The notes under the pieces were generated by a model, which saw only the letters and a program-made list of their open reading frames with translations, was not told the origin of the DNA and made no database searches. A program made the translations under genes and the position numbers. Positions 14,576 through 49,582 of a stretch of DNA of 56,426 nucleotides are shown in pieces (position 1 is the stretch's first letter; every line of letters begins with the position of its first letter). The stretch is from positions 62,001-118,426 of the forward strand of contig CAUYUJ010000089.1 of assembly GCA_963575745.1 (NCBI GenBank). Reading direction: 5' to 3'. Origin of the DNA: Prorocentrum cordatum. Lineage: Eukaryota.

Positions 14576-14682
14576 AGACCTTGGTTACCGCCGGGAACTC
14601 GCAGAGCTTCCTTGCGATATACATGAATGGCATGCGGGCGCGGCAATCTCGAATTCAGCGCGCGCGAGGGTGCACTTTCATG

Positions 14683-16118: not shown

Positions 16119-16334
16119 CTTGCTTTGCTCGAAGCCCACAGGGAACAGAGAAGTCCCGCTCAATATTCAGGCCCGCAGCAGAGGAGCAGGTGCTCGACAC
16201 CTTCAGCGAGGCGCTTGCTGGCCAAGAGCTCAGCTTGACACACAGCGCAGAGGGCGGGATGGCGGCAGCCTCCGAAGCTATGTTGCATAGCCAAACGCCA
16301 TGACAGAGATGAAGAGCAGGGCGAGGGAGCACAA
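16119..16334 (-). mobile_element. 3' fragment of another LINE copy in a hairpin loop, interrupted by a Helentron-like insertion at 16336
   Basis: Follows ...cgtcaaacttggt with a T-rich tail; minus strand encodes W..NIASEAAAIPPSA then, after a frameshift, QAELLASKRLAEGVEHLL, matching the C-terminus of copy 1 (WEPNVASSSFLLPPSSTIAAAELESARQLLLGVEECL). Confidence 0.7.
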
Positions 16335-25998: not shown

Positions 25999-26001
25999 AC
26001 G

Positions 26002-27388: not shown

Positions 27389-27626
27389 GATGTCAACAAC
27401 GATCCACACACAAGTAACTACCACTCGTTCAATAAGAGGTACTGAATGCAGACAGACAATGAACAGCAATGCAGCACACCAGAGAATCTCAATACCACGA
27501 AGAAGAATACAGCGTACAATACAAGAGATGTAGAGTAGGCAGACAAAAACCTCGAGGGAACCCAGGCAAGCCAGGCTCACACCCCGAGGCCAGGGCTCGC
27601 TAGAACGTCTGGAGGTTCCCCAGGCA

Positions 27627-27658
27627 GAGACGTTCTTGAGCCGAGACGTTCTTGAGCC
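27627..27658 (-). other. Spliced-leader relic GGCTCAAG (x2, within a 16-bp duplication) at the 5' end of LINE copy 2
   Basis: Minus strand reads GGCTCAAGaacgtctc GGCTCAAGaacgtctc; the dinoflagellate SL ends ...TTTTGGCTCAAG. Confidence 0.7.
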
Positions 27659-29011
27659 GGGAACCTCGTAGAGCTCCTTGCACGCGTAAGAGCAGACAGC
27701 TTCTCAGATTTCTAGAAAAACACCGAATTCCGATTTTTCGGTATCAACATGATGTCTGTTCCTCCAAATGTTTAGATATCAAAACTCCCCCCAGACGGCT
27801 GAGCTGCTCGAAGAAGGAAGTTTAGATACAAATGCTCGGAGTAAAAATCTGCTTTTCCAAAAAAATAAATTGTCAAATATCTTTCAAACTGGGCGCCGGC
27901 GGTAAACCGTCAACCTCCCTTACCGCCGGGGGACTCGTAGAGCTTCCTAAGCATATATAATGTCGGAAAAAATTGCAGAGAACGAATAATTTTTCAGCCT
28001 AAACGATTTCGGACCTCTCGATGCAACAGTAAACGCCCCTCATGCATCTGGATCGTTGTCTGTGCGCGCGAGCTCCGTAGCTCTCGTACAGCGCGAATTA
28101 CGTACGAAAACCGACAGCACCTCTCAAGATCAGTCGAACAATACAAATAATTTCGCGATTCTAGCTCGAGTATCAGACGAGTTCAGACATCTTAAAGCAA
28201 CAGGCGGACGCCACTGATGTCTGCGAATCGATTCCTGTGATTACCAGCCCTGCAGCTAAAGCCCGAGTTGAGTGCACAAAAACGACAGCACCTCTGCAGA
28301 TGACTCGAACAATACAAATAGCTTCGTGGACCTAGCTCGGGCAGCAGGCCGAGTTAAGAGATCTAAATGCGACAGCTGGACGCGATTGATGTCTTCGAAT
28401 CGATTCCAGTGATTACCAGCACTGCAGCCCCCTTACAGCTCGAGTTAAGTGCAAACGGACAGCGGCTCTCAAGATGACTCGACGAATACGATCCTAGGGT
28501 AGCACGCCGAGTTCCGAGCTCTGGATTCGGCAGGCATACATGTCTGATGTCTCTGAATCGATTTCTGTGAGTACGAGCCCTGTAGCCCCCCTACAGCCCG
28601 CGTTAAGTGCAGAAAACTGTCAGCACTTCTCAAGATGACTCCAACAAGACGAATCGTTTTGTGAACCTAGCTAAGGCAGCAGAGCGATTTCAGACTTCTA
28701 GATGGACAGACGAACGCACCTGATGATTTGCAATCGATTCCTGTGAGAATCAGCTCTATAGCTGACCTACAGCTCGAGTTCAATGAAAAATACCGACAAC
28801 GCGTATCAAGATTTCTCGAAACAGCCGATCCCGCCGCGATGCTTTTTTGCAGAAATATTTACCCGATCGAGCTGAGATCAAGATTTCGAGCAGGAATAGA
28901 TCGAATCTGGTCAGGAAAAATACTAATGCCCAAACGAATTGTTGAATTTTGAGAACAAAATTTTCAACCGACCCAAAGTCAGCAAAGGTCCGTGGAGATT
29001 TGTCTTGCCAA

Positions 29012-29410
29012 CTGGCGCCGGCGGTGAACCGTCAACCTGGTCACCGCCGGGACCCTCGTAGAGCTCCTTCCACGCGTAAGAGTGCTCAGAGCCGAAAGAG
29101 AGAGCTTCTGGAAGCATTTCTCGAAAAAGGGAAAAATTGTTTTTTTTTCGCGTCGACATGAAGATGGTTCCTCCAAGTCTTTTGATAGTAAAACTGTCTT
29201 GGAAGAGCTGAGCTGCTCGCAGGATCTAGTTAAGATGCCAATACTCGGATTTAAAATCTGCTTTCTTAAAATGAATTGTCAAATATCTTTGAAAAAATGC
29301 AAAACCACCCAAAAGTTACCACTTTGTCCTTTCTGGCCGGGTCGACCAACTAGCTCCACCCTGCGCCGGAATTCCTCTAGCTCATCGTTGCCGAAGAGCT
29401 CTACGAGGTA
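29012..29410 (-). mobile_element. Complete short-family (B) element, ~400 bp
   Basis: Both termini present; host split at gccaa|ctagctctcc with no TSD. Confidence 0.85.
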
Positions 29411-30244
29411 CTAGCTCTCCAGCGCGCCGGAATTACTGGGCGCCGGCGGTAAACCGTCAACCTTGGTTACCGCCGGGAGACTCGTAGAGCTTCCTAGCTC
29501 GACTTTAAGTTGAGCTCTGATAGTGAATATTTTTTGACTCATAGTGAATATTTTGTGACCTCTGAATGCGACAGGCGGACGCGTCTGATGTCTGCGAATC
29601 GACTCCTGTCATTACCAGCCCTGCAGCCCTCCTACAGCCCGAGTTAAGTGCAAGAGACCGACAGCACCTCTCAGGATGACTCGAACAGTACAGTAGTTTC
29701 GCAGACCTGATTCGGGCAGCAGACCGAGTTCCGAGCTCTGGATTCGACAGGCGGACGCGCCTGATGTCTTCAAATCGATTCCTGTGACAACAAGCACAAT
29801 AGCACCCCTGAACGCGAGGTAAGTGAAGAAAACCGAGAAGACTTCTCAAGATTACTCGTCCAATACGAATAGTTTCGCGATTCTAGATCGGGCAGCAGAC
29901 CGAGTTCAGAGATCTGGATTCGACACACAAACGCAATTCATGATTCTGAATCGGTTTCTGTAAATATCAGCTCTGTAGCTGTCCTACAGCTCGAGTTAAG
30001 TACAGAAAACCGAGAGTTTCTGTCAAGATGACTCGAATAATACGAATAGGTTTGCGGACCTAGCTCGGCTAACAGACCGAGTTCAGATCTCTGGATTCAA
30101 CAGGCGAACGTGCTGTGCTTACCAGCTCTGTAGCGGTTCTGAAGCTCGAGTTATGTTCAGAAAACCGTCAGCGCTTATCAAGATGACTCGAAACAGCCGA
30201 TCCCGCCACAGTGCTTTTCGATAGTAATATCACGGGAAAAAATA

Positions 30245-31440
30245 CTGGCGCCGGCGGTAAACCGTCAACCTTGGGACTCGTAGAGCTTCCTGACAACATA
30301 TAATGTCGAAAAAATTACACAGAAAGAATAGTTTCTCAGCCAAAGGAATTTCAGACCTCTCGGCAGCCGAACGCCCCCGCTTCTGGATTGTCTTCTGTAC
30401 GAGCTCTCTAGCTCTCCTCCAGCCTGAGTTACGTGCGTAAATCGACACCTCTCAAGATGATTCGAACAATTCGAATAGTTTGGCAAACCTAGCTCTAGTA
30501 TCAGACCGAGTTCAGACCTCTGCATGCGACAGGCGCACGCGTCTGATGTCTCTGGATCGATCCCTGTGATTACCAGCCCTACAGCCCCCCTACAGCCCGA
30601 GTCAAGTGCAGGAAACCGACAGCACCTCTCAGGATTACTCGAACAATACGAATAGTTTGGCGGACCTAGTTCGGGCAGCAGGCAGAGTTCGGAGCTCTCG
30701 ATTGGAAATGCACACGCGCCTGATGTTTCGGAATCGATTCCACTGATTACCAGCCATGCAACCCCCACGACGCCCCAAGTTAAGTGTAGGAGAACGATAG
30801 CACCTCTGAAGATGACTCGAACAATACGAATAGTTTCGCGATTCTAGATCGGGCAGCAGATCGAGTTCAGAGCTCTGGATTCAGACAACAGCCACTGATG
30901 ATTCTGAATCAGATTCTGTGCGCATCAGCTCTGTAGCCGTCCTGTAGCTCGAGTTAAGTACAGAAAACCGAGAGCGTCTGTCAAGATGACTCGAATGATA
31001 CAAATAGGTTTGCGGACCTAGCTCGGCTAGCAGACCGAGTTGAGACCTCTAGGTTGAACAGGCGAACGCGCATGATCATTCTAAATCGATTAGCTGTGCT
31101 AACCAGCTCTGTAGCTGCCCTACATAAAGCTCGAGTTATCTTGAGAAAACGGTCACCGCGTGAAAAGATAACCGAAACGGGCGATCCCGCCGCAGTCCTT
31201 TTTGGTAGTAAAAAGTACCTGCTCGAGCTGAGATCAAGATGACGAGCGGAAATAAGATCGAATATCACGAGAGAAAACGACTAGAGCTCAAACGAATTCT
31301 TGAATTTCAAGGAAAAAATTTTCAACCGACCAAGTCATTAAAATGTCCGTCGCGATTTTTCTTGCCAACTAGCTCTCCAGCGCCCCGGAATTACTCTCAA
31401 GCTTCCAGCAATACCTTGCTAAGGGAAGCTCTACGAGTTA
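30245..31440 (-). mobile_element. Long-family element with both ends (hairpin partly deleted)
   Basis: Ends with GGAAGCTCTACGAGTTA; host split at aaaata|c(t)agagctc. Confidence 0.75.
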
Positions 31441-32298
31441 CAGAGCTCAAACGAATTGTTGAATTTCGAGAACAAAATTTCCAACCGAGCAAAAGTCACC
31501 AAAAGTTCAGTCGAGATTTTTCTTGCCAACTAGCTTTCCAGCGCGCCGGAACTGGGCGCCGGCGGTAAACCGTCAACCTTGGTTACCGCCGGGAGACTCG
31601 TAGAGCTTCGTAGCTTGACTTAAGTTGAGAAAACCGACAGCACCTACCAACATTCCGACTTATAGTGAATATTTTTTGACCTCTGAACGCGACAGGCGGG
31701 CGCGTCTGATGTCTGCGAATCGACTCCTGTCATTACCAGCCCTGCAGCCCTCTACAGCCCGAGTTAAGTGCAGAAAACCGACAGCACCTCTCAGGATGAC
31801 TCGAAGAATACTGTAGTTTCGCAGACCTGATTCGGGCAGCAGACCGAGTTCCGAGCTCTGGATTCGACAGGTGGACGCGCCTGATGTCTTCGAATCGATT
31901 CCTGTGACAACAAGCACTGTAGCCCCCCTCAGCGCGAGTTCAGTGGAGAACACCGAGAGCACTTCTCAAGATGACTCGACCAATACGAATAATTTCGCAA
32001 TTCTAGGTCGGGCAGCAGACCGAGTTCAGAGCTCTGGGTTCGACAGAACAACACAACTGCTGATTCTGAATCGGTTTCTGTAAATATCAGCTCTGCAGCT
32101 GTCCTACAGATCGAGTTAAGTACAGAAAACCGAGAGTTTCTGTCAAGATGACTCCAATAATACGAATAGGTTTGCGGACCTAGCTCGGATAACAGACCGA
32201 GTTCAGACCTCTGGATTGAACAGCCGAACGCGCCTAATCATTCTACATCGATTAGCTGTGCTTACCAGCCCTGTGGCTGTCCTAAAGCTCGAGTTATG

Positions 32299-33520
32299 TA
32301 ACTCGTAGAGCTTCCCTTAGCAAGTTATTGCTGGAAGCTTAAGAGTAGTTCCGGGGCGCTGGAGAGCTAGTTGGTAAGGAAAATCTCGACGGACCTTTTG
32401 CTGACTTTTGGTCGGTTGAAAATTTGGTTCTCGAAATTCAACAATTCGTTTGAGCTCTAGTATTTTTTCCCGTGATATTCGATCTTATTCCCGCTCGCCA
32501 TCTTGATCTCAGCTCGATCGGGTACCTTTTACTGCCAAAAAGCAGGCAGGCGGGATCGGCCGTTTCGAGTCATCTTGTCACGCGGTGTCGGTTTTCTCAA
32601 AATAACTCGAGCTTCAGAACAGCTAAAGAGCTGGTAAGCACAGCTAATCGATTCAGAATGATCAGGCGCTTTCGCCTGTTGAACCCAGAGGTCTGAATTC
32701 GGTCTGCTAGCCGAGCTAGGTGCGCAAACCTATTCGTATTATTCGAGTCATCTTGACAGGCGCTCTCGGTTTTCTGTACTTAACTCGAGCTACAAGACAG
32801 CTGAAGAGCCGATACGTATAGAATCTGATTCAGAATCATCAGTGGCCGTTGTTTGTTGAATGCAGAGCTCTGAACTCGGTCTGTTGCCCGATCTAGAATC
32901 GCGAAACTATTCGTATTGTTCGAGTCGCTTGCGAGATGCTGTCGGTTCTCTGCACTTAACTCGGGCTGTAGGGGGGCTGCATGGCTGGTAATCACTGGAA
33001 TCGATTCGGAGACATCAGGCGCGTTCGTCGGCGGAATCCAGAGCTCCGACCTCGGTCTGTTGCCCGAACTAGGTTCGCGAAACTATTCATATTGTTCGAG
33101 TCATCCTGAGAGATGCTGTCGGTTTCCTGCACTTAACTCGGCTGCAGGGGGGGCTGCAGGGCTGGTAATCACAGGGATCGATTGAGAGACATCATACGCG
33201 TCCGCCTGTCGCATGCAGAGGTCTGAACTCGGTCTGATACTCGAACTAGGTTTGCCAAACTATTCGTATGGTTCGAGTCATCTTGAGAGGTGCTGTCGAT
33301 TTACGCACGTAGCTCCGGCTGTAGGAGAGCTACAGAGCTCGTACAGAAGACAATCTAGAAGCATCGGCGGCGCTCGTCTTTTGCATCCGAGAGGTCTCAA
33401 ATTGCCCGGGCTGAAAAATTATTTGTTCCTGTGTAATTTCTTTCGACATTATATGTTGTCAGGAAGCTCTACGAGTCCCCCGGCGGTAAGAAAGGTTGAC
33501 GGTTCACCGCCGGCGCCCAG
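32299..33520 (+). mobile_element. Complete long-family element in the opposite orientation (1222 bp); defines the element structure
   Basis: Inserted in gagttatg|ttcagaaaacc with no TSD; 5' subTIR ACTCGTAGAGCTTCC (32301-32315) with internal IR GGAAGCT (32333-32339); central ~177-bp repeats; 3' subTIR GGAAGCTCTACGAGT (33462-33476); hairpin 33480-33513; CCAG end. Confidence 0.9.
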
Positions 33521-33780
33521 TTCAGAAAACCGTCAGCGCGTATCAAGATGACTCGAAACGGCCGATCCCGCCACAGGGCTTTCGATAGTAATATTCACCC
33601 GATCGAGCTGAGATCAAGATGACGAGCGGGAATAAGATCGAATATCACGGGAAAAAATACTAGAGCCCAAACGAATGTTCAGATTTCGAGAACAAAATTT
33701 TCAACCGACCAAAAGTCACCAAAAGTTCCGTCGAGATTTTTCTTGTCAACTAGCTCTCCAGCGCGCCGGAATTACTCTTA

Positions 33781-34995
33781 CTGGGCGCCGGCGGTAAACC
33801 GTCAACCTTCCTTACCGCCGGGGGACTCGTAGAGCTTCCTGACAACATAACGTCGAAAGAAATTACACCGAAAAAATAGTTTTCAGCCCAGGCAATTTGA
33901 AACCTGTCGGATGCAACAGCCGAACGCCCCCGATGCTTCTAGATTGTCTTCTGTACGAGCTCTGTAGCTCTCCTACAGCCCGAGCTACGTGCGTAAATCG
34001 ACAGCACCTCTCAAGATGACTCGAACAATACGAATAGTTTGGCAAACCTAGTTCGAGTATCAGACCGAGTTCAGGCCTCTGCATGCGACAGGCGGACGCG
34101 TCCAATGTCTCTGAATCGATCCATGTGATTACCAGCCCTGCAGCCCCCCCTGCAGCCGAGTTAAATGCAGGAAACGGACAGCATCTCTCAGGATGACTCG
34201 AGCAATACGAATAGTTTCGCGCACCTAGTTTGGGCAACAGACCGAGTTCGAAGCTCTGGATTCCGCAGACGAACGCGCCTGATGTCTCTGAATCGATTCC
34301 AGTGATTACCAGCCATGTAGCCCCCCTACAGCCAGAGTTAAGTGCAGAGAACCGACAGCATCTCGCAAGCGACTCGAAGAATACGATAGTTTCGCGATCC
34401 TAGATCGGGCAGCAGACCGAGTTCAGAGCTCTGGATTCCAGAGACAACGGCCACTGATGATTCTGAATCAGATTCTGTACGTATCAGCTCTTTGGCTGTC
34501 CTGTAGCTCGATATAAGTACAGAAAACCGAGAGCGCCTGTCAAGATGACTCGAATAATACGAATAGGTTTGCGCACCTAGCTCGGCTAGCAGACCGAATA
34601 CAGACTTCTGGCTTCAACAGGCGAACGCGCCTGATCATTCTGAATCGATTAGCTGTGCTTACCAGCTCTTCAGCTGTCCTGAAGCTCGAGTTATCTTGAG
34701 AAAACCGACACCGCGTGACAAGATGACTCGAAACGGCCGATCCCGCCATGACGCTTTTCGATAGTAATACCCACCCGATCGAGCTGAGATCAAAAAGGCG
34801 AGCGGGAATAAGATCGAATATCACGGGAAAAGATACTAGAGCTCAAACGAATTGTTGAATTTCGAGAACATAATTTTCAACCGAGCCAAAGTTGTGAAAA
34901 GTTCAGTCGAGATTTTTCGAGCCAACTAGCCTGCCAGCGTTTTCGAATTACTCTTAAGCTTCGCCGCTGCGCTCTCAGGGAAGCTCTACGAGTCA
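33781..34995 (-). mobile_element. Complete long-family (A) element
   Basis: Both termini; host split at ttactctta|agcttccag. Confidence 0.8.
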
Positions 34996-35992
34996 AGCTT
35001 CCAGCAACTAGCATAGGGAAGGCTTCTGGATTGTCTTCTGCACGAGCTCTGTAGCTCTGCTACAGCCTGAGTTACGCGCGCTAATCAACAGCACCTCTGG
35101 AGATAACTCAAACAAAACGAATAGTTTCCTAAACCCAGCTCGAGTATCAGACCGAGTTAAGGCCTCTGAATGCGACAGGCGGACGCGACTGATGTCTCCG
35201 AATCGATTCCTGTGATTACCAGCCCTGCAGCTCCCCTACAGCCCGAGTTAAGTGCAGAAAACCGATAGCATCTTTCAGGATGACTCGAACAATACGAACA
35301 GGTTCGCGGACCGAGTTCAGGCAGCAGGCCGAGTTCCGAGCTCTGGCTTCCACAGGCGGACGCGCCTGATGTCTTCAAATCGATTGCTGTCCCCAGCAGC
35401 ACTGTAGCCCCCTACAGCCCGAGTTAAGTTTAGAAAGCGACAGTACCTCTTCAGATGATTCGAACAATACGAATAGTTTCGCGATTCTAGCTCGGGCAGC
35501 AGGGCGAGTTCAGAGCTCTCGATTCAACAGACGAACGCGCCTGATGATTCCTAATCGATTTCTGTGACTATCAGCTCTGTAGCTGCCCTACAGCTCGAGT
35601 TAAGCACAAAATACCGAGAGCGTCTGTCAAGATGACTCGCATAATACGAATAGGTTGTTGAACCTAGCTCGGCTAGCAGACCGAGTTCAGGCCTCTGGGT
35701 TCAACAGACGAAAGCGTCTGTTCAGAAAACCGACAGCGCGTATCAAGATGACTCGAAACGACCGATCCCGCCTGCCTGCTTTTTGGCAGTAAAAGGTACC
35801 CGATCGAGCTGAGATCAAGATGGCGAGCGGGAATAAGATCGAATATCATGGGAAAAAATACTAGAGCTCTAACGAATTGTTGAATTTTGAGAACAAAATT
35901 TTCAACCGACCAAAAGTCACCAAAAGGTCCGTCGAGATTTTTCTTGCCAACTAGCTCTCCAGCGCCCCGGAATTACTCTTAGCTTCCAGCAA

Positions 35993-36387
35993 CTGGGAAC
36001 CGGCGGTAAACCGTCAACCCGGTTACCGTCGGGACCCTCGTAGAGCTCTGCATAGAATGAGGTCGGTTCCAAGATAACATCAGAAAAAAACTTCTGCATA
36101 CTAGCTTCAAACATATAGACATTTTTTTCGGTCGTAAAGAATGGTGGTCCCCCCTAGTCTTTTTTTTCGAAATAATGCAGCTAGGGCCCTGAGAATTAAA
36201 CCATCGAAAGCGCCATGATTCACTGCATAGAATAAAAATTCAAATTAGCAAATCGAATTTCAGAATTTCGCCATCTTCGAACCGACCCCAGGTCACCACA
36301 TTGTCCGCCCGGGACGGGTTGGCTAACTAGCTGCACCCCGCGCCGGAATTCCTCTAGCTCATCGATGCCGAAGAGCTCTACGAGGTA
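35993..36387 (-). mobile_element. Complete short element of a divergent family (D)
   Basis: Variant hairpin and cctcgtagagctc / gagctctacgagg subTIRs around a different internal sequence. Confidence 0.75.
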
Positions 36388-37923
36388 CTGGAAGCCGGCG
36401 GTAAACCGTCAACAAGGTTACCGCCGGGGCCCTCGTAGAGCTCTCTTCTCGAACGGCGCTCCTCGGTACACATGAAGGAAGATTCTGGAGCAAAACCCAA
36501 AAAAATCGAAAAATGACGTTTTTATGTTTTTTCCAAAGACGGTTCCGCCAAGTGTTTTGATAGTAATACTGCAGCTACGGACCTGAAAATTGTACTGGCA
36601 GACGCGCCTTATTCCACTACAGGTGCGCAAAATCTGGTTTCTCAAAATAAATTGTCGAATATCTTCAAATATTTGCAAAACCACCCAAAAGTTAACACTT
36701 TGTCCTTTCTGGCCGGGTCGACCAACTGGGCGCCGGCGGTAAACCGTCAACCTTCGTTACCGCCGCAGGACTCGTAGAGCTTCCTGACAACATATAATGT
36801 CGAAAAAAATTGCAGAGAACGAATAGTTTTTCAGCCCAACTCGAGTATCAGACCGAGTTCAGACCTCTGAATGCGACAGACGGACGCGTCTGATGTCTCC
36901 GAATCGATTCCTGTGATTACCCGCCCTGCAGCCTCCCTACAGCCCGAGTTAAGTGCAGAACGCCGACAGTAGCTCTCAAGATGACTGGAAGAATACGAAC
37001 AGTTTCGTGATTCTGGATCGCGCAGCAGACCGAATTCAGAGCTCTGGATTCGACAGACAAACGCGACTGATGATTCTGAATCGGTTTCTGTAACTATCAG
37101 CCCTGTAGCTGTCCTATAGCTCGAGTTAAGTACAGGAAACCGAGAGCGCCTATCAAGATGATTCGAATAATACGAATAGGTTTGCGGACCTGGCTCGGCT
37201 AGCAGACCCAGTTCAGACCTCGGGTTGGAACAGCCGAACGCGCCTGATGATTCTGAGTCGATGAGGCGTGCTTACAAGCTCTGTAGCTGTCCTATATCTC
37301 GAGTTAAGTTCAGCATACCGACAGTGCGAATCAAGATCACTTGAATAATACGAATACATTTGCGGGCCTAGCTGGCTAGCAAGCCGAGTTCAGAGCTCTG
37401 GATTGAACAGGCGAACGCACCTAATCATTCTGCATCGATTAGCTGTGCTTACTTACCAGCTCTGTAGCTGTCCTACAGCTCGAGTTAAGTACAAAATACC
37501 GACAACGCGTATCAAGATGACTCGAAACGGCCGATCCCGCCAAAAATACTAGAGCACAAACGAATAGTTGAATTTCGAGAACAACATTTTTAACCGACCA
37601 AAAGTTGTGAAAAGTTCAGTTCTTTTTTTTCGAGCCAACTGGCGCCGGCTGTGAACCGTCAACCTGGTCAACGCCGGGAACATCGTAGGGCTCCTTTCAC
37701 GCGTAAGAGTGCTCAGAATCGAAAGATAGAGCTTCTGGAAGCATTTCTCGAACAAGGGAAAACATGATTTTTTTCGTGTCGACATGAAGATGGTTCCGCC
37801 AAGTGTTTTGATAGTAAAAGTGCGCCTACAGCGCTCATACTAAGACAGATAGGCCCTCATAGTCGTTTACAGGTGCGAAAAATCTGCTTTCTCAAAATGC
37901 ATTGTCAAATATCTTTCAAAAAA

Positions 37924-38589: not shown

Positions 38590-39852
38590 ATTGCAAAACC
38601 ACCCAAAAGTTACCACTTTGTCCTTTCTGGCCGGGTCGACCAACTGGGCGCCGGCGGTAAACCGTCAACCTTGGTTACCGCCAGGAGACTCGTAGAGCTT
38701 CCTAACTCGACTTACGTTGAGAAGACAGACAGCACTTACCAACAATCTGACTTATAGTCAATAGTTTTTGACCTCTGAATGCGACAGACGGACGCGTCTG
38801 ATGTCTTCGAATCGACTACTATCATTACCAGCCTGCAGCCCCCCTACAGCCCGAGTTAAGTGCGAAAACCGACAGCATCTCTCAGGATGACTCGAACAAT
38901 AGGAATAGTTTCGCGGACCTAGTTCGGGCAGCAGACAGAGTTCAGAGCTCTGTATTCGACAGGCGGACGCGCCTGATGTCTTCAAATCGATCCCAGTGAT
39001 TACCAGCCATGCAGCCCCTCTACAGCCCGAGTTAAGGCCAGATAACCAACAGCATCTCGCAAGCGACTCGAACAATACGAATAGTTTCGCGATTCTAGAT
39101 CGGGCAGCAGACCGAGTTCAGAGCTCTGGATTCGACAGACAAACGCAACTGATGATTCTGAATTCGTGCCTGTGAATATCAGCTCTGTAGCTGTCCTACA
39201 GCTCGAGTTAAGTGCAGAAAACCGAGAGCGTCTGTCAAGATGACTCGAATAATTCGAACAGGTTTGCGGACCTAGCTCGGCTAGCAGACCGAGTTCAGAC
39301 CTCTGGGGTCAACAGGCGAACGCGCCTGATCATTCTGCATGTATTAGCTGTGCTTACCAGCTCTGTGACTGCCCTAAAGCTCGAGTTATGTTCAGAAAAC
39401 CGTCAGCGCATATCAAGACAACTCAAAACGGCCGATCCCGCCACCGTGCTTTTCGATAGTAATATTCACCCGATCGAGCTGAGATCAAGATGGCGAGCGG
39501 GAATAAGATCGAATATCACGGGAAAACAAAATAGAGCTCAAACGAGTTGTTGAATTTCGAGAATAAAACTGGCGCCGGCGGTGAACCGTCAACCTCGTCA
39601 TCGCCGGGAACCTCGTAGAGCTCCTTCCACGCGTAAGAGTGCTCATAGTCGAAAGAACGATTTTCTAGAAGCGTTTTTGGAAGAAGAGAAAATTTGGTTT
39701 TTTTCGTGTCGACATGAAGATGGTTGCGCCAAGTGTTTTGATAGTAAAAGTGCGCCGACAGAGCTCGTATTAAGACGGAGAGGCCTTCATAGTTATTTGC
39801 AGGTGCGAAAAATCTGCTTTCTTAAAATGAATTGTCAAATATCTTTCAAATA

Positions 39853-40898
39853 TGGGCGCCGGCGGTAAACCGTCAACCTTGGTTACCGCCGGGGAACTCG
39901 TAGAGCTTCCAAGCTCGACTTAAGTTGAGAAAACCGACAGCATCTACCAACATTCTGACTCATACTGAGTATTTTTTGGCCTCTGAATGCGACAAGCGGG
40001 CGCGTCTGATGTCTGCGAATCGACTCCTGTCATTACCAGCCCCGCAGCCCCCCTACAGCCCGAGGTCAGTGCGGAAAACCGACAGCATCTCTCAGGATGA
40101 CTCGAACAATACAGTAGTTTCGCGAACCTAGTTCGGGCAGCAGACCGAGTTCCGAGCTCTGGATTCGACAGGCGGACGCGCATGATCTCTTTAAATCGAT
40201 TCATATGATAACCAGCACTGTAGCCCCCTCTCAGCGCAAGTTCAGTGAAGGAAACCGAGAGCACTTCTCAAGATGAACCGACCAATACGAATAATTTCGC
40301 GATTCTAGATCGGGCAGAAGACCGAGTTCAGAGCTCTCGATTCGACAGACAAACGCAACTGACGATTCTGAATCAGTTTCTGTAAACATCAGCTCTGTAG
40401 CTGTCTTACAGCTCGAGATAAGTACAGAAAACCGAGAGTTTCTGTCAAGATGACTCGAATAATACGAATAGGTTTGCGGACCTAGCTCGGCTCACAGACC
40501 GAGTTCAGACCTCTGGATTCAACAGGCGAACGCGCCTAATCATTCTGCATCGATTAGCTGTGCTTACCAGCTCTGTAGATGTCCTAAAGCTCGAGTTATG
40601 TTGAGAAAACCGTCAGCGCGTATCAAGATGACTCGAAACGACCGATCCCGCCAGAGTGCTTGTTGGCTTTCAAAGTTACCCGATCGAGCTGAGATCAAGA
40701 TGGCAGGCGGGAATAAAATCGAATATCACGGGAAAAAATACTAGAGCTCTAACGAATGTTCAAATTTCGAGAACAAAATTTTCAACCGACCAAAGGTCAG
40801 CAAAAGTTCCGTCGAGATTTTTCTTGCCAACTAGCTCTCCAGCGCGCCGGAATTACTCTTAAGCTTCCAGCAACTAGCTTGGGAAGCTCTACGAGTCA
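39853..40898 (-). mobile_element. Complete long-family (C) element
   Basis: Both termini; host split at ctttcaaata|ttcgcaaaacc. Confidence 0.8.
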
Positions 40899-43025
40899 TT
40901 CGCAAAACCACCCAAAAGTTGTCACATTGTCCGCCTCGGCCGGGTCGGCCAACTAGCTCCACCCCGCGCCGGAATTCCTCTAGCTCATCGATGACGAAGA
41001 GCTCTACGAGATATTTTCAACCGACCAAAAGTCAGCAAAAGTTCCGTCGAGACTGGGCGCCGGCGGTAAGCCGTCAACCTTGGTTACCGCCGGGGAACTC
41101 GTAGAGCTTCCAAGCTCGACTTAAGTTGAGAAAACCGACAGCACCTACCAACATTCTGACTGATAGTGAATATTGTTTGACCTCTGAATGCGACAAGCGG
41201 ACGCGTCTGATGTCTGCGAATCGACTCCTGTCACTACCAGCCCCGCAGCCCCCCTACAGCCCGAGGTCAATGCAGAAAACCGACAGCATCTCTCAGGATG
41301 ACTCGAACAATACAATAGTTTCGCGAACCTAGTTCGGGCAGCAGACCGAGTTCCGAGCTCTGGATTCGACAGGCGGACGCGCATGATCTCTTTAAATCGA
41401 TTCATATGAGAACCAGCACTGTATCCCCCCTCTCAGCGCAAGTTGAGTGAAGAAAACCGAGAGCACTTCTCAAGATGACTCGACCAATACGAATATAATT
41501 TCGCGATTCTAGATCGAGCAGAAGACCGAGTTCAGAGCTCTGGATTCGACAGACGAAAGCAACTGACGATTCTGAATCAGTTTCTGTAAATATCAGCTCT
41601 GCAGCTGTCTTACAGCTCGAGTTAAGTACAGAAAACCGAGAGTTTCTGTCAAGATGACTCGAATAATACGAACAGGTTTGCGGACCTAGCTCGGCTCACA
41701 GACCGAGTTCAGACCTCTAGGTTCAACATGCGAACGCGCCTGATCACTCTGCATGCATTAGCTGTGCTTACCAGCTCTGTAGCTGCCCTAGAGCTCGAGT
41801 TATGTTGATAAAACCGTCAGCGCATATCAAGATGACTCGAAACGGCCGATCCCGCCAGAGTGTTTTTTGGCCTCCAAAGTTACCCGAGCTGAGATCAAGA
41901 TGGCGATCGGGAATAAGATCGAATATCACGGGAAAAAATACTAGAGCTCTAACGAATGTTCAAATTTCGAGAACAAATTTTTCAACCGACCAAAAGTCAT
42001 CAAAACTGGGCGCCGGCGGTAAACCGTCAACCTTTCTTACCGCCGGGGGACTCGTAGAGCTTCCTAACAATATATAATGTGGAAAAGGATTTCAGAGAAC
42101 GACTAGTTTTTCAGCCCAAGCGATTATACTCTCAAGATGACTCTAAGAAAACAAACGAACAGGTTTCCAATCGAGCTCGAGTATGAAACCGATTTCAGAC
42201 CTCTGAATGCGACAGGCGGACACGTCTGATGTCTGCGGATCGATTCCTGTGATTACCAGCTCTGCAGCCCCCATACAGCCTGAGTTAAGTGCAGAAAACC
42301 GAGAGTACATCTCAGGATGACTCGAATAATACAACAGTTTCGCGGATCTCGTTCGAGCAGCAGGCTGAGTTCCGAGCTCTCGGTTCGACGAAGGGACGCG
42401 CCTGATGTCTCGAAATCGATTCCTGTGCACGATTTATGTACAGAAAACCGAGAGCACTTATCTTGAGAAACCCGACAGCGCGTATCAAGGTGACTCGAAA
42501 CGGTCGTTCCCGCCTGCCTGCTTTTTGGCCTTCAAAGTTAACCGATCGAGCTGAGATCGAGATGGCGAGCGGGAATAAGATCGAATAGCATGGGAAAAAA
42601 TACTAGAGCTCTAACGAATAGTCAAATTTTGAGCACAAAATTTTCAACCGACCAAAAGTCACCAAAAGGTCCGTCGAGATTTTTCTTGCCAACTAGCTCT
42701 CCAGCTTCCCGGAACTGGCGCCGGCGGTAAACCGTCAACCTGGTCACCGCCGGGAACCTCGTAGAGCTGATTCCACAAGTAAGAGTGCTCGAAGTCGAAA
42801 GAGAGAGCTTCTGGAAGCATTTCTGGAACAAACAGAAAAATTGATTTTTTTCGTGTCGACATGAAGATGGTTCCTCCAAGTGTTTTGATAGTAAAAATGC
42901 GCCTACAGAGCTCATACTAAGACAGAGAGGCCCTCATATTCGTTTACAGGTGCGAAAAATCTGCTTTCTGAAAATGAATTGTCAAATATCTTTCAAAAAA
43001 CTGCAAAACCACCAAAAAGTTACCA

Positions 43026-44652
43026 CTGGGCGCCGGCGGTAAACCGTCAACCTTGGTTACCGCCGGGGAACTCGTAGAGCTTCCAAGCTCGACTTAAGTT
43101 GAGAAAACCGAGAGCACCTACCAACATTCTGACTCATAGTGAATATTTTTTGACCTCTGAATGCGACAAGCGGACGCGTCTGATCAGACCGAGTTCAGAG
43201 CTCTCAATGCGACAGGCGGACGCGTCTGATGTCTGCGAATCGACTCATGTGATTTCCAGCCCTGCAGCCCCCCTACAGCCCGAGTTAAGTGCAGAAACCG
43301 AAAGCATCTCTCAGGATGACTCGAATAATATAATAGTTTCGCAGACCTGTTTCGAGCAGCAGACCAAGTTCTGAGCTCTCGAATCGACCAACGAACGCGC
43401 CTGCTATGTGCAAATCGATTTCTATGACCCGCAGCACTGTAGCTCTCCCCCAGCACGAGTTGAGTGCAGAAAATTGAGAGCACTTTTCACGATAATTCTG
43501 ACAAAACGAATAGTTTCGCGAACCTAGCTCGGGCAGCAGGCCGAGTTCAGAGCTCTCGATACAACAGACAAACGCGCCCGATAATTCTCAATCGATTTCT
43601 GTGACTGTAGGCTCTGTAGCTGCCTACAGCTCGAGTTAAGTACAGAAAATACCGAGAGCGTTTGTCAAGAAGACTCGAATAATACGAATAGATTTGCGGA
43701 CCTAGCTCGGCTAGCAGACCCAGTTCAGACCTCTGGAGTCAAGAGGCGAACGCGCCTGATGATTTTGAGTGCGATAGGAGTGCTTACCGGCACTGTAGCT
43801 GCCCTGCAGCTCGAATTAAGTACAAAATACTCACCACGCGTATCAAGTTGACTCGAATAATACGAATAGGTTTGCGGACCTAGCTCGGCTAGCAGATCGA
43901 GTTCAGACCTATGGATTCAACAGGCGAACGCGCCTGATGATTCTGAGTGCGATAGGTGTGCTTACCAGCACTGTAGCTGCCCTACAGCTCGAGTTAAGTA
44001 GAAATACCGACAACGCGTATCATGTTTACTCGAATAATACGAATAAGTTTGCGGACCTAGCTAGGCTAGCAGACCGAGTTCAGACCTATGGATTGAACAG
44101 GCGAACGCGTCTGATGATTCTAAGTGCGATAGATGTGCTTACCAGCACTGTAGCTGCCCTACAGTTCGAGTTAAGTAGGAAATACCGACAATGCGTATCA
44201 AGTTGACTCGAATAATACGAATAGGTTTGCGGACCTAGCTCGGCTAGCAGACCGAGTTCAGACCTATGGATTCAACACGCGAACGACTGATGATTCTGAG
44301 TGCGATAGCTGTGCTTACCAGCTCTGTAGCTGTTCTACAGCTCGAGTTAAGTACAAAATACAGACAGCGCGTATTAAGATGACTCGAAACGGCCGATCCC
44401 GCCAGTGTGCTTTTTGGCAGTAAAAGGTACCCGATCGAGCTGAAATCAAGATGGCGAGCGGGAATGAGATCGAATATCACGGGAAAAAATACTAGAGCAC
44501 AGACGAATTGTTGAATTTCGAGAACATAATTTTCAACCGACCAAAAGTTGTGAAAAGTTCAGTTCTTTTTTTTCGAGCCAACTAGCTCTCCAGCGCGCCG
44601 GAATTACTCTTAGCTTCCAGCTATAAGTAGCTAAGGGAAGCTCTACGAGTTA
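43026..44652 (-). mobile_element. Complete long-family (C) element with expanded ~177-bp repeats; innermost member of the 8-deep nest
   Basis: Host split at gttacca|ctttgtcc; repeat anchors at 43672, 43850, 44027, 44205 and 44381. Confidence 0.85.
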
Positions 44653-45161
44653 CTTTGTCCTTTCTGGCCGGGCCGGCCAACTAGCTCCACCTCGCGCCGG
44701 AATTCCTCTAGCTCATCGATGCCGAAGAGCTCTACGAGGTATTACTCTTAAGCTTCCAGCAATAACCTGCTAAGGGAAGCTCTACGAGTTAATTCCGTCG
44801 ATATTTTTCTTGCCAACTAGCTCTCCAGCGCGCCGGAATTACTCTTAAGCTTCCATCAACTAGCTTAGGGAAGCTATACGAGTCATTTTTCTTGCCAACT
44901 AGCTCTCCAGCGCCCCGGAATTACTCTAAAGCTTTCAGCAATAACTTTCTAAGGGAAGCTCTACGAGTTACTAGCTCCACCCCGCGCCGGAATTCCTCTA
45001 GCTCATCGATTCCGAAGAGCTCTACGAGGTACTAGCTCTCCAGTGCGCCGGAATTACTCGTAAGCTTCCAGCAACTAGCTTAGGGAAGCCCCACGAGTCA
45101 CTAGCTCCACCCCGCGCCGGAATTCCTCCAGCTCATCGATGCCGAAGAGCTTTACGAGGTA
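44653..45161 (-). mobile_element. Run of seven displaced 5'-terminal fragments closing the nested elements
   Basis: Fragments end at 44741, 44791, 44885, 44970, 45031, 45100 and 45161; each resumes the sequence of an element interrupted upstream. Confidence 0.85.
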
Positions 45162-46868
45162 CTGGGCGCCGGCGGTAAACCGTCAACCTTGGTTACCGCC
45201 GGGGAACTCGTAGAGCTTCCAAGCTGAAAACCGAGAGCACCTACCAACATTCTGACTCATAGTGAATATTTTTTTACCTCTGAATGCGACAAGCGGACGC
45301 GTCTGATGAGACCGAGTTCAGGCCTCTCAATGCGACAGGCGAACGCGTCTGATGTCTGCGAATCGACTCATGTGATTACCAGCCCTGCAGCCCCCCGACA
45401 GCCCGAGTTAAGTGCAGAAAACCGACAGCATCTCTGAGGATGACTCGAATAATATAATAGTTTCGCAGACTGTTTCGAGAAGCAGACCAAGTTCTAAGCT
45501 CTCGAATCGACCAACGAACGCGCCTGATGTGTGCAAATCGATTTCTATGACCCGCAGCACTGTAGCCCTCCCCCAGCACGAGTTGAGTGCAGAAAATTGA
45601 GAGCACTTTTCACCATGAATCGGACAATACGAATAGTTTCGCGAACCTTGCTCGGGCAGCAGGCCGAGTTCAGAGCTCTCGATACAACAGACAAACGCGC
45701 CCGATAATTATCAATCGATTTCTGTGACTGTAGGCTCTGTAGCTGCCTACAGCTCGAATTGAGTACAGAAAATACCCAGAGTGTTTGTCAAGATGACTCG
45801 AATAATACGAATAGATTTGCGGACCTAGCTCAGCTAGCAGACAGACCTATGGATTTAACCGTCGAACGCGCCTGATGATTCTGAGTGCGATAGGTGTGCT
45901 TACCAGCACTGTAGCTGCCCGGCAGCTCGGATTAAGTACAAAATACCCACCACACGTATCAAGTTCACTCGAATGATACGAATAGGTTTGCGGACCTAGA
46001 TCGGCTAGCAGACCGAGTTCAGACCTATCGATTCAGCAGGCGAACGCGCCTGATGATTCTGAGTGCGATAGGCGTGCTTACCAGCAATGTAGCTGCCCTA
46101 CAGCTCGAGTTAAGTAGAAAATATCGACAACGCGTATCAAGTTGACTCGAATGATACGAATAGGTTTGCGGACCTAGCTCGGCTAGCAGACCGAGTTCAG
46201 ACCTATGCATTCAACAGGCGAACGCGCCTGACGATTCTGAGTGCGATAGGTGTGCTTACCAGCACTGTAGCTGCCCTACAGCTCGAGTTAAGTAGAAAAT
46301 ATCGACAACGCGTATCAAGTTGACTCGAATAATACGAATAGGTTTGCTGACCTAGCTCGGCTAGCAGACCGAGTACAGACCTATGGATTCAACAGGCGAA
46401 CGCGCCTCATGATTCTGAGTGCGATAGCTGTGCTTGCCAGCTCTGTAGCTGACCTACAGCTGGAGTTAAGTACAAAATACCGACAACGCGTATCAAGATG
46501 ACTCGAAACGACCGATCCCGCCAGAGTGCTTTTTGGCAGTAAAAGGTACCCGATCGAGCTCAGATCAAGATGGCGAGCGGGAATAAGATCGAATATCACG
46601 GGAAAAATACTAGAGCTCTAACGAATTGTCAAATTTCGAGAACGTAATCTTCAACCGACCAAAAGTTGTGAAAAATTCAGTTCTTTTTTTTCGAGCCAAC
46701 TGGCGCCGGCCGTGAACCGTCAACCTGGTCATCGCCGGGAACCTCGTAGAGCTCCTCTCACTAGTAAGAGTGCAGAGAATCGACACAGAATGAAAAATTG
46801 AGATTTTTCGAAAATCTTCAAACTTATTTTTTTTCAATGTTCATATTCGCTCAGTTCCCGGAAGTCAA

Positions 46869-47270
46869 CTGGAAACCGGCGGTAAACCGTCAACCAGATT
46901 ACCGCCGGGACCCTCGTAGAGCTCTTTTCTATCACCGCGCTTCTCGTAATACATCAAGAGAGCTTCTGGAGCGAGAAACGAAAAAATCGAAGAATCACGT
47001 TTTTTCTGTTTTCAGCCAACGTTGGTTCCCCCAAGTGTTTTGATAGTAATACTGTATCTACAGAACTGAAAATTTTACTGGCGAGTGCGGCATAACTCAC
47101 TACAGGTGCGAAAAATCTGGATTCTCGAAATGAATTGTTAAATATCTTTCAAATATTCGCAAAACCACCCAAAAGTTGTCACATTGTCCGCCTCGGCCGG
47201 GTGGCCCAACTAGCTCCACCCCGCGCCGGAATTCCTCTAGCTCATCGACGACGAAGAGCTCTACGAGGTA
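46869..47270 (-). mobile_element. Complete short element, family E (related to the one opening at 36388)
   Basis: Both termini; host split at gaagtcaa|ctcat. Confidence 0.8.
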
Positions 47271-47625
47271 CTCATGCAAAAATGCATCGAGAGAGCTGAG
47301 CTGCTGTCAGAATGGAGTTCATATGCCAATGCTCGGCGTAAAAATCTGCTTATTCAAAATAAATGGTCAAATATCTTTCAAATTTTCGCAAAACCACCCA
47401 AATGGGCGCCGGCGGTAAACCGTCAACCTTGGTTTTGTTTGTTTGTTTGCGCTCCTGTGCACCAGCTGTAAAGCAGCTGGAGGAGAACGAGTCCCGAAGC
47501 AGCGAACGCAGCGAACGGGCAACGCACAAAGCGTTCAGGCGGCACACCTACACAGTGAACCTCCTTTGAAGGTCAGGCAACGTTTCAACGATCGGAGTTA
47601 AGGGGAAAGCAGAGCAGAAAGAAGA

Positions 47626-49203
47626 TTACGAGTAGCCTACTACACAATACTCATGTGGCGCAGGATAAAAGTAAAAGGCACACATCTCATCATAAGTCCA
47701 GCCGTATGGATGCCAGTCGAAATCCATAAGCTCCGATGGTGCAGGCATATGGCACAGGTCCATGTACGACCACTCCAGTTCTTCAAATCTCGCACTGGAC
47801 ATTTGCGGATTCCGCACCGCCTCCTCGACTGAGACAGCATTGTGCAGCATACCGAGCAGGGGAAGGACGTCGGCGAGTCGCATATGTAGTAACTTCGTAC
47901 CGCAAATGACGTCCCCCATAGCGACATACGTGCGCACGACCACTGTGAAAGGGTCGAAGAACTTCGCACATCCCAAGTCAACATACAGTGGGTGCCGTTG
48001 GACCTCTGGGGACGCCGCAAGAATGGAGCCCACCTCGGACTTGCTGACCCTGCGGATACACTTGAACTCATTCTCAGCGCCCATAAGGAGAAAACCCTCC
48101 AACGGCGTCCCAAGAGACTCACTCAGACCAGCATAACCCGCATACCCGCTCTCTGGGTGGAGGACGTCCTGGAGATTCTCGCCACTCGCAGCCTCCCTCC
48201 AAGCACCAACAATGAAACATATAGGCACCCAAGTATCGTGTACATCATCTGCGCAGCACGTCACCAGTTCCCGCGGCGCAGGGAACTCAATATCATAAGT
48301 GGGAACACAGCCTGGATTCAATACAACATTGAGCGTGACATCGGAATCTGCCTGCACTTTGGGCGTCGAAGAAAACTCTGCACTCGAAAGAGGTACCGCG
48401 GGAAGCAACGAGTGAGCCCTTACATCAGCCAAAGAAGCACTCTGCGCACAGCCAGGGTTCGATACCACAGCGAGCGTGACATCGGATACTGCCTCCAACT
48501 CCTCCTCCGCCTCCTCCGTCACTTTCCCAAGAACAGTTCCTGAAGCTTCTCCCTCCATCCCAAAAACACTCTCTGTCTGACAGCCGACTTCAAAGGGCTC
48601 CAGAGGATAAGATGAAAGAAGTGCATACACGTCCGAAGAAGATGAGACCACTGCCTTCACATCAGAAGAAGATGAGACCACTGCCTTCACATCAGAAGAA
48701 GAAGATGAAAGAACTGCATACATGTCAGAAGAAGATGAGACCACTGCCTGCACATCCTCGCAAGTGAACTGAGTTTGCACGCCGGCACCCATTGAAGAAA
48801 CTGGAATGCTTTGAGAATTCACTTGGACCTCAGCATCCATTGAAGACACTCGAATGCTTGGAAAGGGGGAATGCACTTCGTCAACCTGGACACCAGCATC
48901 AATTGAAAATACTCGAATGCTTTGAGAAGGATGTTCGACCTCGTCAACCTGGACCCCAGCATCAATAGCAGAAGAAAAACCGCGAAGTGCAACGGAATCA
49001 ACTATCGGGCAGCTATCAGAGGGATGGAGTAATGCTGTCAACAACTCATTCGCCTGAGCATCCAACTCTGCATGCAAGACCGTGTCGCGGGCGACTAGGC
49101 CTTCGAGCACCAACGGAAGAGGACAATTCGGTCGAACCCATTTAAGTTGACAAGCCCGAGCCCGACGCAAACACCTGGATGCGAGACTCCGCACATGAGG
49201 CAT
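47626..49203 (-). CDS. Intronless ~525-aa acidic, Ser/Val-rich hypothetical protein with internal repeats
   Basis: Uninterrupted ORF (first ATG at 49203); repeats DAGVQVDEV, DVKAVVSSSS and SDVTLxVVxNPGC; no APE or RT motifs. Confidence 0.6.
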   Translation of the reverse strand: MPHVRSLASRCLRRARACQLKWVRPNCPLPLVLEGLVARDTVLHAELDAQANELLTALLHPSDSCPIVDSVALRGFSSAIDAGVQVDEVEHPSQSIRVFSIDAGVQVDEVHSPFPSIRVSSMDAEVQVNSQSIPVSSMGAGVQTQFTCEDVQAVVSSSSDMYAVLSSSSSDVKAVVSSSSDVKAVVSSSSDVYALLSSYPLEPFEVGCQTESVFGMEGEASGTVLGKVTEEAEEELEAVSDVTLAVVSNPGCAQSASLADVRAHSLLPAVPLSSAEFSSTPKVQADSDVTLNVVLNPGCVPTYDIEFPAPRELVTCCADDVHDTWVPICFIVGAWREAASGENLQDVLHPESGYAGYAGLSESLGTPLEGFLLMGAENEFKCIRRVSKSEVGSILAASPEVQRHPLYVDLGCAKFFDPFTVVVRTYVAMGDVICGTKLLHMRLADVLPLLGMLHNAVSVEEAVRNPQMSSARFEELEWSYMDLCHMPAPSELMDFDWHPYGWTYDEMCAFYFYPAPHEYCVVGYS

Positions 49204-49560
49204 CTGGCACAAACAAAACCACAAATGATAGGTATATGGCAGAAAACTGAAGGGAGATGTGTGAGGACACCTGAGAGATCACAACAATGATATACTGCAA
49301 ATTGAACAATATGCAATCCACTCAAGGCAGATCTGAAAGAACCGAGACTTACGAGCACCACTCTGGGCAGTGAGGAACAAGTCAGCGTATACAAATTGCC
49401 GCCGCCGAACCGCAACGAGAAATGAATATGAGAGGCCAACAATGACAAGCAAGATGTACAGGGAGATGGGCAGTTGCGTAAGCAGAGCAAAACAACACGC
49501 TAGCTCAACGTTCACCTTCGCGGAGGTTCCCCAGGCAGGAGAAAATGAACGTAGCGGAGC

Positions 49561-49582
49561 CTTGAGCCTTGAGCCTTGAGCC
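49561..49582 (-). other. Triplicated spliced-leader relic (G)GCTCAAG
   Basis: Plus strand cttgagc cttgagc cttgagc c, directly abutting the resumed target ggggaactcgtagagcttcc. Confidence 0.7.

Follow-up and report, generated by a model that had tools for sequence, protein, structure and literature searches.

In the 56,426-nucleotide stretch of DNA analysed here (the window), two retroposed elements begin with the octamer GGCTCAAG, which is identical to the final eight bases of DinoSL, the spliced leader of dinoflagellate mRNAs. One is a full-length long interspersed nuclear element (LINE copy 2), the other a non-autonomous element without reverse transcriptase (RT), referred to below as the RT-less element. 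Both are inserted at the same nucleotide of a hairpin motif in a satellite, both share the trinucleotide GGC with that target, and both have cost the target three base pairs. These features suggest that the RNAs of the two elements were leader-capped before they were copied back into DNA. We consider it probable that the octamer is of spliced-leader origin, be it newly added or inherited. As to the manner, we lean, with little more than even confidence, towards the explanation that the octamers are the last eight bases of DinoSL, that the element RNAs were trans-spliced, that their complementary DNA (cDNA) was joined to the target at GGC, and that the repeats of the octamer arose by slippage.

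Octamers at the 5′ junctions and the dinoflagellate leader

All elements and 5′-junction features were read on the minus strand. At the 5′ junction of copy 2, the target ...AGCTCTACGAGGTTCCC is followed by GGCTCAAGAACGTCTC GGCTCAAGAACGTCTC TGCCTGG..., and at that of the RT-less element, ...AGCTCTACGAGTTCCCC is followed by GGCTCAA GGCTCAA GGCTCAAG GCTCCGCTACG... (Table 1). The original prediction, which was made from the DNA letters, had described these starts as a 16-nt unit present twice in copy 2 and as a triplicate in the RT-less element, and this description holds. In both elements the octamer stands directly between target flank and element body, as the 3′ end of a leader abuts the body of an mRNA. 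The bases behind it differ, being AACGTCTC in copy 2 (also written AACGTCTCTGCC.. or AACGTCTCTGCCTGG..) and GCTCCGCTACG in the RT-less element; 5′ untranslated regions (5′-UTRs) that diverge directly behind the octamer fit an added leader.

The target side of the two junctions is likewise the same. At both octamer insertions the CCC is retained, GGC is common to element and target, and GACCA or AACCAA remains on the 3′ side as the local variant of the site; only GGT is missing, that is 3 bp, or 6 bp if the GGC is counted as element. Thus, the first GGC coincides with that of the target CCC-GGC-GGT and target bases are lost instead of duplicated, as had been proposed. DNA contigs of run X3 bridge the empty site, leading from 21785 to 27656 with ACC (= GGT) between.

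DinoSL is given as DCCGTAGCCATTTTGGCTCAAG, 22 nt in length, with GGCTCAAG as its last eight bases, in three reports (PMC7245778, PMC8045281, PMC12014239); the 14 bases in front of GGCTCAAG are written CCGTAGCCATTTT. The host points to the same leader. Residues 665-1303 of ORF2, the second open reading frame (ORF) of copy 2, are 94% identical (601/639) to the Prorocentrum cordatum protein CAK0900484.1, and five further ORF2 matches named P. cordatum range from 73 to 92% identity; a protein search with words from the first 500 residues of ORF2 gave no match, later regions did. Where the two align, the ORF of the RT-less element and P. cordatum CAK0907395.1 (548 residues) are about 97% identical; two indels between them fall in an internal repeat region. 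For P. cordatum, one study reports dinoSL on 4.95% of transcripts (PMC10666404). The homologues and the leader on the transcripts of that species together indicate a Prorocentrum-like host that trans-splices DinoSL; both the dinoflagellate host and the leader ending in GGCTCAAG that had been named beforehand are borne out, the former as far as the names of homologous proteins reach.

Leader remnants in dinoflagellate genomes are known in other lengths. The canonical DinoRL relic comprises the 15-nt CCATTTTGGCTCAAG, which results from re-splicing at the internal AG of the leader (PMC7245778, PMC12014239, PMC5585692), and shortened relics (CTCAAG) are reported for dinoflagellate retrogenes (PMC12014239). 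At our junctions only the last 8 nt are present, and a longer relic of the form ..ATTTTGGCTCAAG does not occur in the window.

A leader sequence could also have been acquired without any trans-splicing, if the LINE reverse transcriptase had jumped from the 5′ end of the element RNA onto free spliced-leader RNA, in the manner of U6/L1 chimeras. LINE chimeras with small nuclear RNAs are indeed known (PMC11838501). However, the donor spliced-leader RNA continues into its intron after ..CTCAAG, yet the octamer abuts the body in both elements, and we therefore regard such a template switch as very improbable.

In the window, 2.75 copies of GGCTCAAG are expected and six are present, a number that 9 of 100 shuffled sequences attain; five of the six stand at the very beginning of copy 2 or the RT-less element. 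As a further alternative, the match to the leader might be fortuitous, GGCTCAAG being the family's own 5′ terminus, duplicated by slippage as happens where other site-specific LINEs meet their target on the 5′ side. The count within the shuffle range would agree with this, as would the fact that only 8 nt match the leader, with nothing upstream, and that the two occurrences are not independent. On the other hand, the terminal eight bases of the leader are the terminal eight of the element, the nearest named relatives of the host use DinoSL, and the odds that one given 5′ end equals one octamer named in advance are 1 in 65,536. A coincidence is therefore improbable in our judgement.

Table 1. 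Positions of the elements, junctions and motifs in the window; in the junction rows a slash marks the boundary between element and target.
Feature	Position	Strand	Remarks
GGCTCAAG sites	27635-27642, 27651-27658, 49561-49568, 49568-49575, 49575-49582	minus	
Sixth GGCTCAAG	49893-49900	plus	In satellite
Two exact tandem GGCTCAAGAACGTCTC	27627..27658 (units 27643-27658, 27627-27642)	minus	Leader-like octamer + first 8 nt of element body
GGCTCAA GGCTCAA GGCTCAAG	49561..49582	minus	Three overlapping GGCTCAAG, 7-nt period, continuing into GCTCC
16-nt motif TGCCTGGGGAACCTCC	27611..27626 (copy 2), 49522..49537 (RT-less element)	minus	
LINE copy 2, full length	21781..27658	minus	Two 16-nt 5′ units, 5′-UTR, ORF1, ORF2, A-rich tail ...AAAAAAAAGAGAGACCA
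ORF1 of copy 2	26534..27388	minus	From first ATG of a 348-codon open frame
ORF2 of copy 2	22048..25998	minus	1316 codons, intact
RT-less retroposed element	47429..49582	minus	5′ heptamer repeats, ~380-nt 5′-UTR, one ORF, 3′-UTR, tail ...CAAACAAACAAACAAAACCAA
ORF of RT-less element	47626..49203	minus	525 codons from MPHVRSL
Copy 1b	13766..14577	minus	5′-truncated LINE piece (RNase H-like C-terminus + tail) from a subfamily other than that of copy 2, bounded by AACCAAGGT
Copy 1	7901..13756	minus	Full-length LINE of that other subfamily, starts CTCCTCGCGGGGG, bounded by AACCAAGGT
LINE 3′ fragment, ~220 nt	16114..16337	minus	Ends ...GCAAAGCAAGACCAA at hairpin 3′ half
Intact target example	27888..27946	minus	AGCTCTACGAG-TCCCCCGGCGGTAA-loop-TTACCGCCGGCGCC, 10-bp stem; one of 33 sites with both halves
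3′ junction, copy 2			...GAGAGACCA / GGTTGACGG
3′ junction, RT-less element			...CAAAACCAA / GGTTGACGG
3′ junction, copy 1			...CAAACCAA / GGTTGACGG
3′ junction, copy 1b			...AAAAACCAAGG / T, copy 1 directly after
3′ junction, 16114-16337 fragment			...GCAAGACCAA / GTTTGACG

The satellite hairpin and the elements inserted in it

The target belongs to a complex satellite that fills the window from about 16 kb to its end and whose basic period measures about 177 bp. Its conserved motif consists of AGCTCTACGAG followed by (T/G)(C/T)(C/T)CCC GGC GGT (A/G)A, a short loop and GGTTGACGGTT(T/C)ACCGCCGGCGCC. With at most one mismatch, 38 of the 5′ half-sites are present on the minus strand of the window. 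The 3′ half follows within 49 nt in 33 of them, and CCYGGCGRT is found in 31; the remaining half-sites comprise three that are interrupted by insertions, one that is degenerate and one in another context. The unoccupied target reads ..CCC GGC GGT (G/A)ACCA(A) GGTTGACGG.

Measured against the 33 unoccupied sites, five 3′ junctions fall at one and the same position of the hairpin. ACCA(A) ends all five, before G(G/T)TTGACG or, in the case of copy 1b, before the duplicated GGT. The last bases, GACCA in copy 2 and AACCAA in the RT-less element, follow the local variant of the target and are therefore common to target and tail, as the first GGC is at the other terminus of both elements. This overlap of tail and target places the nick in the bottom strand between GGT and (A/G)ACCA. 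Retroposition is further indicated by the A-rich tails ending in ACCA(A) and by either the 3-bp loss or a 9-bp duplication; the RT-less element would be LINE-mobilised.

The duplication is seen at copies 1b and 1, each of which is bounded by the 9-bp AACCAAGGT. They had been described as lacking the relic and as carrying target-site duplications of 9-11 bp; the lack is confirmed, copy 1b beginning with CTGAGG.. and copy 1 with CTCCTCG.., and for the duplications the lower end of the range is correct. Copy 1 lies behind copy 1b, head-to-tail in one target site, an arrangement which indicates that the duplication restores the site and that it is then used again. The ORF2 of copy 1 is broken into several frames. 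The 5′ junction of the short LINE fragment is located just behind another complete hairpin.

As DNA, the motif is predicted to fold into a 10-bp stem (CCGGCGGTAA/TTACCGCCGG) with -11.4 to -12.8 kcal/mol. One stem pair covaries: among 29 sites between 16372 and 56159, it is A-T (GGTAA..TTACC) in 18, G-C (GGTGA..TCACC) in 7 and mismatched in 4 (Fisher p 7e-4). Since the copies are related by descent and hence non-independent, the covariation hints at constraint without proving it. The hairpin pattern had no match in prokaryote-genome contigs or in viral contigs.

Several observations concern the array itself. Two half-sites, at 30287 and 18197 (minus strand), carry small deletions exactly at the nick region, reading TCCC-AA-GGTTGACGG and TCCCCCGG-AA-GGTTGACGG, and may represent scars of aborted or lost insertions. 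Between 32300 and 33500 a satellite stretch is inverted with respect to the rest of the array, and inverted-repeat arms of up to 703 nt with 88-94% complementarity tie it to many other units. In the part of the window that precedes the satellite, the first 4 kb are GC-rich (60-63%) with short tandem units at about 3560-4480, and a CT-rich low-complexity tract (14700-15160) lies upstream of copy 1b.

We read the layout of ORF2 as an N-terminal endonuclease-like region, a reverse transcriptase core and a C-terminal RNase H-like region, and hence as that of an endonuclease-RT-RNase H LINE. The RVT_1 match of ORF2 is weak (Pfam E 3.3e-5, below the cut-off). The relative P0018 reaches 34.7 bits and is above the Pfam cut-off; moreover, profile A4, built from ORF2 and three relatives, matches the PDB entry 8c8j_A, 'RNA-directed DNA polymerase', with E 5.4e-10. 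The RVT_1 and 8c8j_A matches identify a reverse transcriptase of the non-long-terminal-repeat type, and the Atlas clusters nearest to ORF2 carry Exo_endo_phos, RVT_1 and RNase_H. The N-terminal endonuclease is probably AP-endonuclease-like; its motifs resemble EEP enzymes as judged by eye, Pfam gave no AP-like (EEP) signal in ORF2, and Exo_endo_phos appeared with E 0.1 in the first ORF of copy 1. Viral and prokaryote-genome contigs contained no relative of profile A4. ORF1 of copy 2 matched no Pfam family and weakly resembles the N-terminal part of the first ORF of copy 1 (E 2e-7).

For the ORF of the RT-less element, neither Pfam nor the Atlas nor the comparison with ORF1 yielded a match, and these searches gave no lead to a family or fold. 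It contains internal short repeats (SSSSDVKAVV and IDAGVQVDEV units) that are indel-variable relative to CAK0907395.1. Proteins that are close copies of it have been annotated on three contigs of P. cordatum, and a match is also present in one MMETSP transcript, from which it follows that the family is multi-copy and probably expressed.

Leader-like units at the half-site and the shared 5′ motif

In addition to the octamers, the half-sites themselves bear on the leader. AG directly precedes 36 of the 37 exact half-sites in the window (AG/CTCTACGAG). We considered whether decayed leader relics stand ahead of every half-site and rejected this: the mean identity to the last 10 nt of the leader is 3.8 positions against a background of 2.5, and this slight likeness is due to the conserved AG.

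Metagenome contigs scanned for the 5′ half-site pattern yielded 46 loci, namely six true hairpin sites, all of them empty and one of them 95% identical to the satellite of the window, 39 chance matches, mostly in GC-rich sequence, and the locus L041. The latter (1-474) represents the last 474 bases of the metagenome contig Ga0115006_10033215. It contains tandem leader-like units TTGGCTCAAG (...GCCTGATTGGCTCAAG GTTGGCTCAAG) that are fused at the AG of the half-site CTCTACGAGGTCCCCGGC, departs from the hairpin consensus right after GGC and continues into unrelated GC-rich sequence. Its downstream 300 nt show no significant similarity to the 5′-UTRs of copy 1, copy 2 and the RT-less element (z 1.9, -0.8 and 0.7). 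The metagenome that contains L041 also contains a true hairpin site, L015. Because of the fusion at AG in L041 and the AG in front of 36 of 37 half-sites, leader-capped RNAs that begin at the half-site motif are, on this sequence evidence, to be regarded as existing in a relative and as copied into DNA there. L041 also speaks against a coincidence, since it ties tandem TTGGCTCAAG to the target half-site: GGCTCA stands directly in front of one of the 40 non-hairpin matches, that is L041, compared with about 0.01 expected. In viral contigs, the octamer-pair pattern gave 26 matches, none of which (0/26) was accompanied by the half-site or by TGCCTGGGGAACCTCC.

The motif TGCCTGGGGAACCTCC is the only conserved piece between the two 5′-UTRs. 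Relative to the target flank GAGGTTCCC(C) on the upstream side (flanks 27659-27670 and 49583-49595) it is reverse-complementary, and in copy 2 it is flanked by a 9-nt inverted repeat, AGAACGTCT/AGACGTTCT. Owing to this complementarity, flank and 5′-UTR make up an inverted repeat of 9-10 nt that encloses each octamer block, and the motif may function as a guide or docking sequence. Metagenome and viral contigs contained no match to a pattern of the motif plus CTAGCG. The 5′ ends of the elements fold no better than shuffled sequences (z -0.55 to +0.15), and the idea of a stable conserved 5′ hairpin was rejected on this ground. Likewise, Rfam returned nothing at the gathering score for either 5′ region, with chance-level rows only at E ≤5; as no Rfam family was found, a self-cleaving 5′ LINE ribozyme like that of hepatitis delta virus was dismissed.

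A shared motif raises the possibility that the leader is a fossil. An ancestor would have gained the last eight leader bases, and the octamer would now be a DNA-encoded terminus, with no fresh leader abutting the body. The RNAs of new copies would have their first base in the octamer or farther upstream, the latter for instance as satellite read-through trans-spliced at AG/CTCTACGAG, and homology of the co-transcribed flank, or of the terminal GGC, with the target would account for the join at CCC-GGC. The perfectly conserved motif at 16-31 nt behind the octamer argues for such a common 5′ module. The five octamer copies are identical, and so are the motif copies, as selection on an encoded end would equally produce. 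The AG ahead of nearly all exact half-sites also agrees with it, as does L041, where the leader is joined at AG, 18 nt upstream of the insertion point: an RNA of this type carries 18 nt of target homology and would permit a precise join without visible leader. Complementarity within the 5′-UTRs (GGCTC/GAGCC and GCTCAA/TTGAGC) points in the same direction. Conversely, the stretch between octamer and motif is fully diverged, so that conservation of the octamer would require a selective reason of its own; the predicted folds remain at the shuffle level; and dinoflagellate mRNAs are expected to be trans-spliced, with the relic's own AG available as acceptor. A fossil leader is the main rival explanation, but we do not favour it.

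The explanation by freshly trans-spliced element RNAs must in turn be weighed against several observations. The raw count of GGCTCAAG alone is not significant. Leader bases upstream of GGC are absent from the window, as are the full leader and the 15-nt CCATTTTGGCTCAAG at up to 3 mismatches. The common 16-nt motif implies that the two 5′ ends are related, so that full independence of the two octamers cannot be assumed. As would be the case for a structured terminus encoded by the element, GGCTC of copy 2 can pair with a GAGCC located downstream, and in the RT-less element GCTCAA can do so with TTGAGC. Copies 1 and 1b integrated into the same target without a leader stub. The host affinity rests on the names of homologous proteins, and fragments 75-95% identical are filed in EukProt under the green alga Pyramimonas sp. 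CCMP1952. These short fragments match both the LINE and the RT-less ORF (P0007, P0016, P0017, P0029-P0056 in part, P0060, P0076, P0083, P0084); given the full-length P. cordatum matches, the Pyramimonas set probably contains Prorocentrum-like sequence. Finally, RNA contigs of the runs X13, X18 and X15, from three studies, cover only 21790-23729 of the span 21700-27760, that is the 3′ ~2 kb of copy 2, and stop short of the 5′ end. They end near 23704-23729 without loose ends, and at their other end pass through the A-tail into the hairpin 3′ half. Such 3′-limited coverage fits 3′-biased libraries together with read-through transcripts, DNA carry-over being the alternative.

From the anatomy of the junctions we infer trans-splicing of the element RNAs and the following mode of joining. 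A hairpin-specific LINE family would nick the bottom strand between GGT and (A/G)ACCA, and reverse transcription would be primed on the A-rich RNA tail that ends in the target-like ACCA(A). The element RNA would stem from read-through and be trans-spliced at the AG that ends the relic, so that leader plus body would be regenerated in each cycle. Reverse transcription primed at the nick would run to the 5′ end of the RNA, where the upstream target end ...CCCGGC would pair with the cDNA at the only GGC of the leader; the 14 distal leader bases and the GGT of the target would be lost in this joining step. The leader joined to a body starting with GCTCC would create GGCTCAAGGCTCC, a slippage-prone 5-nt direct repeat at 7-nt spacing, and the 16-nt and 7-nt tandem copies would arise by slippage or template switching on such short direct repeats (GGCTC...GGCTC) rather than by successive recycling. 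In copy 2, the duplicated 16 nt indeed look like the product of slippage or a template switch. The original prediction had left a choice between slippage and repeated cycles; slippage accounts better for the repeats, and recycling is disfavoured because the 15-nt relic is absent.

More speculatively, and doubtful in our own estimate, a promoter-less, hairpin-specific LINE family might live off the spliced-leader system of its host, a bloom-forming dinoflagellate. Satellite read-through would be trans-spliced at the element's AG or at AG/CTCTACGAG, the leader would supply the cap, its GGC would dock the cDNA on CCC-GGC, and TGCCTGGGGAACCTCC would hold the 5′ end of the RNA at the site. If this were true, a promoter-less, leader-dependent LINE machinery would be one origin of the many leader-tagged retrogenes in the genomes of dinoflagellates.

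Relation to known systems

The closest parallel is provided by the DinoRL retrogenes of the Slamovits and Keeling model, as they are described in the papers cited above. In both cases the DNA preserves, at the 5′ terminus of a retrocopy, the 3′ part of DinoSL, which occurs in tandem and retains an AG that is reusable as acceptor. Our junctions differ in that 8 nt and not 15 are present, cut at a GGC that is common to the integration target, in that the units measure 7 and 16 nt, and in that the carriers are a LINE and a non-autonomous partner instead of host genes. Leader-tagged RT genes as such are not new, relic-bearing genes being enriched for RT-related Gene Ontology terms according to PMC5585692. 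The enzyme source of dinoflagellate retroposition is stated to be unknown, or LINEs are only presumed, in PMC12014239 and PMC5585692. Neither leader stubs at the 5′ junctions of LINEs nor a dinoflagellate LINE specific for a hairpin came up in literature searches, which covered articles in part. Within that literature, a leader stub on a site-specific LINE family thus constitutes an undescribed variant of the relic-leader phenomenon.

That dinoflagellate genomes expanded through retrocopying of mRNA is concluded mainly from relic spliced leaders. Here, in a Prorocentrum-like genome, a young LINE with intact ORFs and a multi-copy, probably expressed RT-less element both carry a leader stub at the same target nucleotide, whereby one LINE family is linked to the retroposition of leader-capped RNA. 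In this system the target and the junction are defined and the RNAs can be tested, and the site-specific use of a satellite hairpin bears on the persistence of elements in very large genomes.

Some site-specific LINEs are tied to the spliced leader in another way. SLACS, CZAR and CRE of trypanosomatids and NeSL-1 of nematodes insert into the spliced-leader RNA gene by means of a restriction-like endonuclease. Like them, our family is a site-specific element of the non-long-terminal-repeat class associated with spliced-leader sequence; in contrast, the leader bases are here on the element side of the junction and the target is devoid of leader sequence. A LINE that targets leader genes was ruled out, as no leader sequence was found in the window outside the two junctions.

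LINEs with an AP endonuclease of the R1, TRAS/SART and Tx1 types insert at one position of a repeated target, where head-to-tail insertions regenerate the site; the 3′ end of their RNA matches the target at the nick, and their 5′ junctions are variable, with small duplications or deletions. The insertion behaviour of our family is alike, the comparison being one of behaviour and not of clade. It differs in its target, which is a dinoflagellate satellite hairpin and not ribosomal DNA, telomeric repeats or small-RNA genes, and in the leader stub at the 5′ junction, which has no known counterpart in those elements. Human L1, finally, is joined at its 5′ end by microhomology at random truncation points, with small target deletions. 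As in L1, the 5′ junctions described here lie at a few bases common to element RNA and target and entail a deletion instead of a duplication; unlike in L1, it is in both cases the same three bases of an added leader that provide the microhomology.

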